Assembly (NCBI GenBank): GCA_964016885.1
Contig: OZ024740.1
Coordinates: 309,566,001 to 309,630,000, forward strand
Direction of reading: 5' to 3'
DNA from: Eledone cirrhosa
Taxonomy: Eukaryota
DNA length: 64,000 nt
Every line of letters begins with the position of its first letter. The first letter of the stretch is position 1. Position numbers and translations under genes: made by a program. Below are positions 10,526-40,470 of the stretch, piece by piece. The notes under the pieces were generated by a model. That model saw only the letters and a program-made list of their open reading frames with translations, ran no database searches and was not told the DNA's origin.

Positions 10526-11333
10526 GCGCTCGTTATTTGGAATTCTCCTTGCTGATAACTTTCTTTCCTTTCATTCATTATAGTAGTAATAGTAGTAGTA
10601 GTAGTAGTGGTGGTGGTGGTCTTCTTCTTCTTCTTCCTCTTCTTCTTCTTCTTCTTCTTCTTCTTCTTCTTCTTCTTCTTCTTCTTCTTCTTCTTCTTCT
10701 TCTTCTTCTTCTTCTTCTTCTTCTTCTTCTTCTTCTTCTTCTTCTTCTAAGGGTGGTGTATAGGCAGTATTGTAAAGCGTCCGACAATATGCTTTACGAC
10801 ATAGAGTTACGGCCCTTTACGTTCTACATTGAAAACCCGCCGAGGTTAGCTTTGTCTTATTACTGCTACTTTATTATAAGACAGAGCTAAGCCCGGCGGG
10901 ATTTCAATTCAGAAAGTAAAGGACCGTAACTCTATGCCGTAATGAATATTGTCCGACGCTTTATTGTACTGCCAATACACCACCATTATAAGAAGAAGAA
11001 GAAGAAGAAGAAGAAGAAGAAGAAGAAGAAGAAGAAGAAGAAGAAGAAGAAGAAGAAGAAGAAGAAGATCGATACCATACCTATCACTAGTTCTACTTAT
11101 CAATGGCCTTACCCCATATGTATAGTAAATAGATCAGATGTAAATATCTGTTATGTCAGCCTTCTGCTCAATACAGATATTTATATTTGATTCACTATAC
11201 ATATGGGGTAAGGCCGTTATAAAATAGACTGATAAAACAAATGATAGGTATGATAATATAATAAAGATGATAATTATCACAAGATATGATATAAAACTTT
11301 AAAACGTTGGATGTTACCCACCTAGTCCCTTAC

Positions 11334-11406
11334 TGGAAAATCCGGGCATCGATCCCGGTACCTCTCACATGCTAAGCGAGCGCTCTACCAACTGAGCTAA
11401 TTCCCC
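11334..11406 (-). tRNA. trnA-AGC: tRNA-Ala(AGC) variant
   Basis: Full 73-nt cloverleaf, G4:U69, D-loop AGTTGG; proximal T-run terminator deleted. Confidence 0.8.
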
Positions 11407-12242
11407 TTGCTTGTTATTTGGAATGGTTCTTTCTGATAACTTTCTTTTCCTCTCATTCATTATAGGAATATTTATGTTGTTGTTGTTGTTGTTGTTGTTG
11501 TTGTTGTTGTTGTTGTTATTGTTGTTGTTGTTGCTGCTGCTGTTGTTGTTGCTGTTGTTGTTGTTGTTGTTGTTGTTGTTCTTCTTCTTCTTCTTCTTCT
11601 TCTTCTTCTTCTTCTTCTTCTTCTTCTTCTTCTTCTTCTTCTTCTTCTTCTTCTTCTTCTTCTTCTTCTTCTTCTTCTTCTTCTTCTTCTTCTTCTTCTT
11701 GTGGCAGTATGGTATAACGTCGGACAATATACTTTACGACATAGAGTTACGGCCCTTTTCCTTCTACATTGAAAACCCGCCGAGGTTAGCTTTGTCTTTC
11801 ATCGTTACGTGGTTGATATAATATAGTAGCAGTAATGTACTGGGGTTGATTTAATCGACTTTCCCCTCCCCCTAAATTGCTGGCCTTGTGCCTAAATGAT
11901 AAAAATAATAATATTATTATTTTCTGCTAAAACACACACACACACACACACACACACACACACACACACACACACACACACACGCATGTGTGTATATGTA
12001 TCTGTATGTTTGCATAAAAACCTAAGTGTAGAAATATGTATGCAAATATAAGCGTATAAGGCGAGTAGCAAAATTTTCAGCAGCAATTTAGATGAGCCGG
12101 CTTATATCTCACTCTGTCCCTCTCTCACTGTATGTGTATGTCCTCAGCCACATATTAAGTCAACAACTAGATAGATTTAAAAATAAAGGAATGACAGGAA
12201 AATGAATTTATAATAAAGAAACCATTACCAAAACCAAGCAGC

Positions 12243-12315
12243 GTGGAATTAGCTCGGATGGTAGAGCGCTCGGTTAGCATGCGAGAGGTAGCGGGATCGT
12301 TGCCCGAATTCTCCA
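12243..12315 (+). tRNA. tRNA-Ala(AGC) variant, probable pseudogene (array position B)
   Basis: GTGGAATTAGCTCGGATGG..CTCGGTTAGCATGCGAG..GCGGGATCGTTGCCCGAATTCTCCA; mismatches in acceptor, anticodon and T stems. Confidence 0.7.
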
Positions 12316-14179
12316 GTAAAGTGTATGTTTTTAGGTGGGTAACACTCAATGTTTTAAAGTTTTATATCACATCTTGTGATAATTATTATCTTTATTATAT
12401 TTTCATACCTATCACTTGTTCTACCTATCAGTCTATTTTACAATGGCCTTACTCCCCATATGTATAGTAAATCAAATATAAATATATGTTATATCAGCTT
12501 TCTACTCAATACAGCTTCAGATATCTTAGTTGGTCTGTAATAAACAGACAACCAAACTGAATATGTGTCGAGGACACACATACACACACATTTATAGTAA
12601 GAGAGAGAGACAGACTGAAATAAAAGCCGGTTCATCCAAATTGCTGCTGAAAATATTACCTCTCGCCTTATACGCTTATATATGAATACATATTTCTACA
12701 CTTAGGTTTATATGCAACGATGGTTGCCGAACACTGTACGGCTAGTAATTCGGGCTGTTTGTTTACAACAAACCGAACATTATAATAAATGTTCGGTAAA
12801 CCCATACGTACATATATATATGTGTGCATGTATGTATGTATGTATATACACACTACTGTACGTCTGTATATATATATGTACGTAAGTATACATACTAATA
12901 ATAATATTGATATTCTGATTTAGGCACAAGGCCAACAATTTTGGGTGAGGGGAAAGTAGATTAAATCAACCCCAGTGTATTACTGCTACTTTATTATATC
13001 GACCATGTAACGATGAAAGGCAAAGCTAACCTAGGCGGGATTTCAATTCAGAAAGTAAAGAACCGTAACTCTATGGCGTAAAGCATATTGTCCGACGCTT
13101 TACTGTTCTGCCAATACACCGCCATTATAAGAAGAAGAAGAAGAAGAAGAACGATATCCGGATTCTCCAGGTGGGTAACACTCAATGTTTTAAAGTTTTA
13201 TATCATATCTTTACTTTGAATAAATAATGAAATAGATATTACATAATTCATCTACTAAATTTCGTAACACATGTTTAAACATATATTAAAAATATTATTC
13301 AAGATTCACAAAAGGCAGAGGATTGGCAGTATCGGTTGAGGGTCTGACGCCATGCTTTGCAGCAAAGAGTTACGGCCCTTTACGGTCTGAGTTCAAATCC
13401 CGCTGAGGTTAACTTTGCCTTTCATCCTTACGGGCTCGATAAAATAAAGTACCAGTAATGCACTGAGTAATTTCTGGCCTTGTGCCAAAAGTATAAACAA
13501 TTATTCAAGATTCACCTCTTTTAAAAGATTCAAATTCCAATACTTCCGGTATACCTATACTATATATATATAGAGAGAGAGAGTGAAAGAGAAAGATGAA
13601 GCGATTTGGAATTTTTTCAACACGCTGATGTGTGTGCGTGTATGTTGTTGTTCTTTGATTTTATAAAATTGCTAGAGCGAGAAAGAGAGATTGTATGTGT
13701 GGGTATATAAAGAGAGGAGTGGCTGTGACATACATATATATATATATATATATATATATAAAAACATGAGAAGAAAGAATACTGCGTGGTTTGCACATGG
13801 GTTACATATGATAAAAATAGTCCTTCGTCAGTGATTTTCCAACCATCATTTGTATTCCATCGCAATTTTTAATGTAAAAGGTATTTTAATTTAAGGTAAA
13901 AGACTAATTGTCAACAATATCTTTTGCATTTGCATTTATATTCTATATCCATACCTGCATTGTTTTGGCTTTACAAATACAAACGTTTATACCTCATTGC
14001 ACAATGCTTCAAGTGAACTATAACTTCCTCCATATATATATATATATATATATATATATATATATATATATATATATATTTATTTATTTATTTTTTTTTT
14101 GTTTTGACATATATTTATTTCCAAGATTTCACCGTAGAGATAACATATCAGAAAGTGAATATGGGATACATGACAGAAA

Positions 14180-39282: not shown

Positions 39283-39355
39283 AAAAATAATAATACTATA
39301 ATGAATGAGAGGAAAAGAGAGTTATCACAAAGGAACCATTGAAAAAAAGACGCAA

Positions 39356-39428
39356 AGGTAATTATCTCAGATGGTAGGACGCTCGCTTAGCATGGGAGAG
39401 GTACTGGGATCGATACCCGGATTCTTCA
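39356..39428 (+). pseudogene. tRNA-Ala pseudogene (position C)
   Basis: Identical to 34540. Confidence 0.8.
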
Positions 39429-39781
39429 ACAAAGGAAATAGCTTTAGGTGGGTAACACACAATGTTTTAAACTTTTATATCATATCTTATCTTTATTATA
39501 TTTTCATACCTATCGTTTGTTTTATTTATCGGTCCCTTTTATAACGGCCTTACTCCATATGTATAGTAAATCAAATATAAATATCTGTATTGAGCAGAAG
39601 GTTGACATAACAGACATTTATATTTGATTTACTATACATGCTGGGTTAGGCCGTTATTAGATATACTGATAAGTAGAACTAGTGATAGGTATGGAAATAT
39701 AATAAAGATGATAATTATCACAAGATATGATATAAAAGTTTAAAACATTGAGTGTTACCCACCTAAAAAAATTTCCTTTAC

Positions 39782-39854
39782 TGGAGAATCCGGGCGTCGA
39801 TCCCGGTACCTCTCACATGCTAAGCGAGCGCTCTACCATCTGAGCTAATTCCCC
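39782..39854 (-). tRNA. trnA-AGC: tRNA-Ala(AGC), intact (position A)
   Basis: Canonical cloverleaf, T7 terminator. Confidence 0.92.
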
Positions 39855-40470
39855 TTTCTTGTCATTTGGAATGGTAATTTTGTGATAAAATCTTTTCCTC
39901 TCATTCATTATTGCATTTTCCATATTACTGCTGCTATTGCTGCTGCTGCTGCTGCTGCTGCTGCTGTTGCTGTTGTTGTTGTTGTTGTTGTTGTTGTTGT
40001 TGTTCTTCTTCTTCTTCTTCTTCTTCTTCTTCTTCTTCTTCTTCTTCTTCTTCTTCTTCTTCTTCTTCTTCTTCTTCTTCTTCTTCTTCTTCTTCTTCTT
40101 CTTCTTCTTCTTCTTCTTCTTCTTCTTCTTCTTCTTTCTTCTTCTTCCAATAATAATAATAATAATAATAATAATAATAATAATAATAATGATTTCATTT
40201 ATTGGCCACAAGGGCCGACATATAGGGGACAATACAAAAGACTGGGAGAGTGGGGTTTTACAGAAAAGTCGAGTAAACAATATGAATAACAATAACAATG
40301 TAACAATAACAAAGTAACAATAAAGTAACAATAAAATTACAACAAGAAAAAATTCCCCAATAGGGGGGATGACCACCTAGGGTTCGCTCAGGTACCCCAC
40401 CAGTCCTGAACGACCCGACGCTTCGAGAGCACCCTGGTAGGGCACCCTTCTCCTCTTCAAATTTACCTAT

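Follow-up and report, generated by a model that had tools for sequence, protein, structure and literature searches.

How a tandem array combining alanine tRNA genes with part of a Helitron transposon came to be formed, and whether it serves to supply more tRNA, are the questions raised by a 64,000-nucleotide stretch of the 3.0-Gb Eledone cirrhosa genome (G000:C1:309566001-309630000; hereafter the window, from the first nucleotide of which positions are counted). A preliminary description, made from the letters alone, proposed a recently expanding tRNA-dosage array that had arisen by unequal crossover or by rolling-circle copying in trans. We read the array instead as a local five-copy tandem duplication within an older tRNA-Ala(AGC) cluster, likely generated by unequal crossing-over in (TTC)n tracts and likely neutral, with the Helitron piece as a passenger, and we assign this reading a probability of about 80%.

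Five tandem units bounded by microsatellite tracts

Self-comparison of the window reveals a 4.8-kb period from ~11.1 to 40.1 kb that is interrupted by a 5-kb break. With unit cuts placed at the ends of (TTC)n tracts and divergence computed outside microsatellites, the array (11700-40147) consists of five head-to-tail units that differ by 0.35% (units 4 and 5) up to 1.83%, which confirms the five near-identical units of the preliminary description. Unit 1 (11700-16412; 4713 bp), unit 2 (16413-21240; 4828 bp), which is a mosaic, and unit 3 (21241-25999; 4759 bp) are followed by unit 4 (26000-35268), which is split by an RTE long interspersed nuclear element (LINE) and has lost ~600 bp including tRNA B, and by unit 5 (35269-40147; 4879 bp), the final (TTC)n tract of which is the right edge of the array and is succeeded by sequence unlike the first short interspersed nuclear element (SINE) of the unit. 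The previously reported span was 11150 to 40147, but the array begins at 11700; the sequence from 11097 to 11700 is a paralogous module, A' (11097-11699, minus strand), which is an older tRNA-Ala(AGC) module (gene at 11334-11406) and not a repeat unit. Module A' is ~83% like the A modules in the self-comparison. The (TTG)n(TTC)n tract at its end is the left edge of the array, with the module's own flank to its left and the unit-type SINE to its right.

In each unit a SINE-like repeat comes first, followed by a stretch of module flank in inverted orientation, then by pseudogene B and the flank 3' of it, and by a second SINE-like repeat. Next come the 3' fragment of a tRNA and the Helitron piece, and after these pseudogene C, the minus-strand tRNA A and a (CTG/TTG)n(TTC)n boundary tract (16222-16412 in unit 1), with TTC runs of 12-44 units across the six edges. 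Although the tRNA 3' fragment and three SINE-like repeats attributed to every unit are visible in the sequence, B is found in four of the five because unit 4 is without the ~600 bp that include it. Moreover, the units are not as uniform as had been thought, the 5.0-kb RTE LINE that breaks unit 4 having been overlooked. The first 0.7 kb of the unit (11700-12434 and equivalents) is more variable than the remainder, with ~3% difference between units 1 and 3 and units 2, 4 and 5, and 7 of the 72 sites of tRNA B vary; this variable start possibly results from conversion by paralogous modules. A 90-bp segment lying between an (AT)n tract and the Helitron coding part is present only in units 4 and 5 (32876-32965 and 37690-37779), and has no match outside the array among 40 candidates scored. 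An 8-bp deletion is common to units 2 and 3.

A 229-bp contig of run X1, which is possibly the assembled sample, spans the Helitron/tRNA junction with one difference, so that the junction exists as DNA. Depths in X1 are 31-41 for unit-specific contigs and ~9 for single Helitron-variant contigs, values that are uncalibrated against single-copy depth and hint at several copies of the unit. Runs X1-X3 represent one sample, and the restriction-site-associated DNA (RAD) run X5 has almost no depth past the junction. That the five units are distinct, and share variants and indels in a nested pattern, argues against false duplication.

Unit edges and the mosaic structure of unit 2

The sequences that adjoin the six TTC tracts change in an ordered manner. 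At the first tract, the flank of A' lies to the left and the unit SINE to the right; at each of the four inner tracts, the flank of A lies to the left and the unit SINE to the right; and at the last tract, the flank of A is followed by a different sequence. This switch in flanks is as predicted by crossover inside the tracts, and edges located within homologous direct repeats that exchange their flanks are the pattern expected of duplication by non-allelic homologous recombination. In addition, unit 2 is a mosaic. Its first segment (540 bp) differs at 3/487 sites from units 4 and 5 compared to 17/483 from unit 3, whereas from the Helitron to tRNA A it is like unit 3, its Helitron part differing at 5/1479 sites from unit 3 and at 14-20 from units 4 and 5. 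When units 1, 2, 3 and 5 are compared, 14 of the 16 informative sites to the left of 12.7 kb group them as 1,3|2,5, and 8 of the 10 to the right as 1,5|2,3; a runs test on these 26 sites gives p=0.006. Unit 2 is thus a recombinant unit of the kind that non-allelic homologous recombination produces. Edge positions, the mosaic and the age order of the components are read directly from the sequence, and we infer unequal crossover as the process; the preference voiced earlier for this mechanism over rolling-circle replication is supported by the location of the edges in homologous microsatellite tracts and by the structure of unit 2.

The Helitron piece

The internal Helitron piece (13212-15587 in unit 1, plus strand) begins ~80 bp inside the 5' TC end of its family and stops just past Rep motif 1. 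Its match to Helitron_like_N (PF14214; E 2.7e-25) ends at FITVTTNPNWDE, and this Rep N-terminal domain, together with a family that has TC and CTAG ends, identifies the fragment as being of Helitron origin. The preliminary description of a Rep cut right after motif 1 and joined to a tRNA flank is accurate, except that the match reaches 15587, ~6 nt beyond the junction quoted there. The family is dispersed, occurring at 35 other places among the 40 of 387 candidates that were scored; these match only up to 15587, and in the 14 dispersed copies that were fetched the element runs on past motif 1. Where family ends are preserved, a 3' hairpin with CTAG (L003, L005, L007, L008) or a 5' TC start (L005, L011) is seen. 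The 3' end gives 0 matches in the window at three or fewer mismatches, and the 5' end gives two three-mismatch matches in the window, both outside the array, a score that is reached in 10/100 shuffles. These data bear out the earlier remark that the unit has no clear Helitron termini, those of the family, as defined by the dispersed copies, being missing. Two further candidates for Helitron ends were rejected: CTAG at 12742-12745 with its nearby hairpin, given that the true family ends differ in sequence, and the CCTATACTATATA stretch near 13553, which is internal to the family in the dispersed copies.

On either side the piece is joined to tRNA-module flank, and microhomology at the joints amounts to a few bases at most. 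The exact pattern of the left junction has five matches in the genome, all of them in the array, and full-length matches to the right junction are seen only at the five units (40 of 387 candidates scored). A genome-wide search for the Helitron/tRNA junction had been proposed in the preliminary description, which regarded a junction confined to this locus and lacking termini as evidence against Helitron mobilisation, and this is the outcome for both junctions. The same description held that the Helitron was dead before amplification, and this is supported by two stop codons that are present in 5/5 units and in 0/14 dispersed copies. The piece differs from these 14 copies by 4.0-5.3% (95-96% identity, substitutions only) compared to 0.35-1.8% between units, and is therefore older than the amplification. 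The Helitron is thus a dead passenger in the unit.

A RepHel frame free of interruptions is seen in none of the 14 fetched copies, if the long frames in an insertion of 4.5 kb in L004 (L004:4240-8770, element orientation) are set aside; two overlapping open frames there extend over 1662 and 1563 codons. In L001 and L005, two 5' terminal motifs precede the coding part at a spacing of 750-970 bp, which suggests that 5' ends are stacked in this family.

Alanine tRNA genes and their number

Each unit has one cloverleaf tRNA-Ala(AGC), copy A (16083-16155 in unit 1, minus strand; also at 20878, 25676, 34966 and 39782). Copy A is marked by G30-U40, and all five copies have G3-U70 and a T5-T7 terminator, which lies 10-12 nt downstream. 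The A genes look real on the basis of G3-U70, the AGC anticodon and the T5-T7 terminator. Pseudogene B (12243-12315, plus strand; also at 17011, 21798 and 35815, with none in unit 4) has stems with 3-4 mismatches in its four copies and is followed by flank from the 3' side of the module (~400 bp); pseudogene C (15654-15726, plus strand), which is arranged tail-to-tail with A, has five in the two copies checked. The earlier distinction between one good tRNA and two damaged copies is therefore upheld with the qualification that, while 4/5 A copies are without stem mismatch, the copy in unit 4 has one in the T-stem and that in unit 1 has an extra G-U pair. C and A form a 630-bp imperfect palindrome (15590-16218; ~79% between units), and the tRNA 3' fragment with its module flank (13155-13211, plus strand) is fused to the Helitron piece at the left junction.

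The array is embedded in a larger cluster. Outside the five units, ARAGORN finds six more Ala(AGC) genes in the window and another two in the 10 kb that follow it, and module-flank matches longer than 100 bp are confined to C1:309.575-309.637 Mb (34/34 candidates scored). The idea that the tRNA module is a SINE or another mobile module was rejected on the grounds that the flank is local only and that the upstream flank is also common to the modules.

With regard to dosage, the genome has 90 exact matches to the 34-base core of the main (C40) form of tRNA-Ala(AGC), 78 of which are located in a separate array at C1:426.67-426.96 Mb, and 14 exact matches to the G30-U40 form, of which nine are in this cluster and three of those in the five units. 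Exact matches to Ala(AGC) therefore number at least 104 (90 + 14), and the four genes added by the array amount to ~4% of them. Given ~90 such tRNA genes elsewhere, the array is most likely an ordinary neutral duplication. Moreover, tRNA A has 2 variable sites in 73 across the five units compared to 2.2 expected from the flanks in what is a low-power test. Set against at least 104 exact-match genes, and with A copies that show no excess conservation, the earlier term "tRNA-dosage array" is not supported, and tRNA dosage is an unlikely role for the array. The sole opening for function is the G30-U40 form of the cluster, a minority form of Ala(AGC). The cluster, which has an upstream flank of its own, might be the main source of this isodecoder, expressed apart from the large housekeeping Ala array and with its dose tuned by a copy-number-variable, TTC-edged array, a proposal that we regard as very unlikely.

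The large tandem array at C1:426.67-426.96 Mb (L018, L019) has, in two 10-kb samples with 16 and 15 genes, a 1.28-kb unit (~97% identical) in which tRNA-Ala(AGC) and tRNA-Ala(TGC) alternate. It includes a gap of ~150 kb without matches (426.745-426.894 Mb), and besides its tRNA genes the unit contains a (TTG)n(TTC)n tract together with the relic of a SINE. This array is a better candidate for tRNA dosage than the one described here. A second mixed Ala(AGC) cluster, with U40 (4) and C40 (4) forms on both strands, is present at G000:C15:3.476-3.579 Mb.

Alternative explanations and the order of events

Several observations weigh against a neutral duplication by unequal crossing-over. Three A copies are fully paired, with wobbles only at G3-U70 and G30-U40, and among eight older modules divergence is 2.1% in the tRNA body compared to ~18% in the flanks, implying that genes of the cluster are kept by selection or conversion. 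The neutrality test on the A copies, with only 2.2 changes expected, is weak; a test for adjacent incompatible sites gives no significance (p=0.57) over the 38 sites in all five units; and the edge pattern fits meiotic crossover, replication slippage and template switching at TTC tracts alike. Selection that keeps or expands the array for more tRNA-Ala(AGC), notably the G30-U40 isodecoder, would account for the conserved bodies of the old modules, for the concentration of U40 matches (9/14) in this cluster, three of them within the units, and for the retention of G3-U70 and the terminator in the A copies. It is, however, difficult to reconcile with 90 C40 matches, most of them in one array, to which four genes add little, with A copies that vary at the background rate and include two with stem-weakening changes, and with an intact tRNA that occupies <2% of the unit, so that we consider it unlikely. 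TTC-type tracts and tRNA genes stall replication forks, and the units might owe their existence not to crossover between homologues but to replication slippage, or to a switch of template, at fragile sites such as the (TTC)n tracts, the tRNA genes and the C/A palindrome. The edges do lie in TTC tracts of 12-44 units next to the 630-bp palindrome, and the first dimer is explained as well by this route as by crossover. Nevertheless, the mosaic unit 2 requires later exchange between units, and inserted or templated bases are absent from the edges, making slippage or template switching an unlikely account of the array.

Copying of the unit in trans by a Helitron transposase through rolling-circle replication is suggested by the dispersal of the family and by the Helitron-derived tandem arrays outlined in PMC12001565. 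The locus has none of the TC start, hairpin-CTRR end and dispersal of the captured unit by which a rolling-circle array would be recognised: neither family terminus is in the window, both junctions are found only at this array, the unit edges are microsatellites, at distances of 2.3 kb and 0.8 kb from the piece of Helitron, and intact RepHel frames are lacking from the fetched copies, apart from the frames inside the L004 insertion. This part of the preliminary description is therefore not supported, and rolling-circle copying in trans, which is largely refuted, retains only a minimal likelihood. The array might also be partly an artefact of assembly, with false tandem copies or joined haplotypes, given that reads and contigs each span at most one unit and that single-copy depth is uncalibrated. 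Against this stand five distinct units with nested shared variants, the deletion common to units 2 and 3, the segment peculiar to units 4 and 5, a LINE in one unit and an X1 contig that bridges the Helitron/tRNA junction, even if X1 may be the assembled sample; we regard an artefact as highly improbable.

Local tandem duplication by unequal crossing-over is consistent with an order of events that we infer from nesting and divergence. A tRNA-plus-flank module would have been duplicated and inverted locally to give the Ala(AGC) cluster, into which a Helitron inserted that then received a SINE and a MITE-like (miniature inverted-repeat transposable element) piece. Deletions may subsequently have removed both Helitron ends, fusing the remaining piece to module flanks, and the two stops would have been gained. 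Misalignment of two (TTG)n(TTC)n microsatellite tracts of tRNA modules would next have produced a dimer, from which the number probably rose to five as whole units underwent more unequal exchange or conversion. The insertion of the RTE LINE into unit 4, with deletion of ~600 bp of its target, would have come last. Divergence decreases in the same order, from the Helitron piece (4.0-5.3%) through the units (0.35-1.8%) to the RTE open reading frame (ORF; 0.03-0.45%). If the rate implied for Octopus vulgaris in the data outlined in PMC13282606 (a Jukes-Cantor (JC) distance of 0.09 at 25 million years) is applied, 1.8% corresponds very roughly to ~2.5, 0.35% to ~0.5 and the RTE divergence to <0.1 million years. 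The array can be called "recently expanding" only in a loose sense, its units being up to 1.8% apart and one of them having since been hit by a LINE.

The RTE LINE in unit 4

The RTE-like LINE (26577-31617, plus strand; ~5.0 kb) has an intact ORF at 27850-31392 that encodes 1180 aa with endonuclease, reverse transcriptase and weak C2H2 finger matches. This ORF differs by 0.03-0.45% from 14 fetched copies (of 40 scored), 12 of which have an open frame of >1200 codons, and thousands of first-look candidates were seen. The family, with intact copies that are nearly identical, is very young. The copy in unit 4 is 5'-truncated, as is evident from the sequence that family copies share further upstream. 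It has a 2-nt microhomology (CA) at its 5' joint and its 3' end in the (TATG)n/(TA)n tract of the unit, and no target-site duplication was found in unit 4. Insertion with target-site deletion is an event class familiar from work on L1 elements, and the absence from unit 4 of ~600 bp, tRNA B included, at the point of insertion fits such an event. Matches up to 31670 suggested a 3' tail shared by the RTE and the unit, but this idea was rejected, the overlap being explained by the (TA)n/(TATG)n tracts at the ends of family copies. Targeting of tRNA genes, suggested by a 5' joint located 1-2 bp upstream of the expected start of tRNA B, was also rejected; the joint represents a 5' truncation with CA microhomology, and tRNA was seen beside 0/14 other copies in the fetched 6.5 kb, a result that covers the 5' side only in part because several true 5' ends fell outside that stretch. 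In domain layout, youth and potential activity the element resembles RTE-2_OV of Octopus vulgaris, which is described in PMC9115989 as young and potentially active with a single ORF of 1109 aa that contains endonuclease, reverse transcriptase and a C2H2 finger. The ORF is longer here (1180 aa compared to 1109 aa), and the likeness is one of domain layout.

Relation to known tandem arrays

Birth-and-death tRNA clusters and segmental duplication by non-allelic homologous recombination are characterised by paralogous modules on either strand, by tRNA bodies that stay conserved where their flanks have diverged, by pseudogenes and by tandem copies whose edges lie in shared repeats. The locus has all of these features; the shared repeat is, however, a ~200-bp trinucleotide tract, whereas a long low-copy repeat is typical of non-allelic homologous recombination. 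Among tRNA-bearing tandem repeats, the variable-number repeat at human 1q23.3, as outlined in PMC4041453, has 9-43 polymorphic, GC-rich units of 7.3 kb, of which tRNA genes make up <6%, and is conserved in mouse with at least 3 units. The array in the window is similar in that tRNA genes take up little of its head-to-tail, multi-kb unit; in contrast to the GC-rich human repeat, it is AT-rich, with five units and one good tRNA per unit. Helitron-derived tandem arrays such as those of Xenopus laevis comprise two to seven copies of a monomer that is itself Helitron sequence, according to the outline in PMC12001565. They share with the present array a small number of tandem units containing Helitron sequence, but in the window the Helitron sequence is internal, lacks termini, accounts for about half of the unit and does not include the unit edges. 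In our view the array is a local tandem duplication of an ordinary kind, set in an old tRNA cluster of the birth-and-death type; in its anatomy it resembles tRNA-bearing tandem repeats. A non-exhaustive search of titles and the beginnings of abstracts found no paper describing this locus.

Read in this way, the locus matters little beyond being a clean case of a microsatellite-bounded tandem duplication in a tRNA cluster, in which the order of transposon events can be read from nesting and divergence. If it is true that the U40 isodecoder is separately expressed and that unit number is selected, isodecoder dosage would become testable in an invertebrate. The by-products may be more useful: one is the large array of alternating Ala(AGC) and Ala(TGC) genes, which lies on this contig too, and the other is the RTE family with near-identical intact copies.

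Other repeats in and around the array

In unit 1, SINE-like repeat 1 (approximately 11700-11900, plus strand) has dispersed matches at unrelated loci, and SINE-like repeat 2 lies on the minus strand at approximately 12920-13130. SINE-like repeat 3 (13294-13515, plus strand) has inserted into the 5' region of the Helitron and is flanked by a 16-bp target-site duplication, the two copies of which are at 13294 and 13500. The same region contains the arm of a MITE-like repeat, a class that we assign tentatively (approximately 13890-14075, plus strand), which ends in (AT)n; dispersed copies of this repeat are 92-99% identical, many of them with an inverted second arm. Just beyond the right edge of the array lies a second LINE (40148-45970, minus strand), which is frameshifted, has two ORFs and a tail of (ATT)n, and is bordered by a target duplication of ~17 bp; a different SINE follows it. 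A tRNA-Ser(GGA)-like call at 1827-1899 is probably the head of a SINE.

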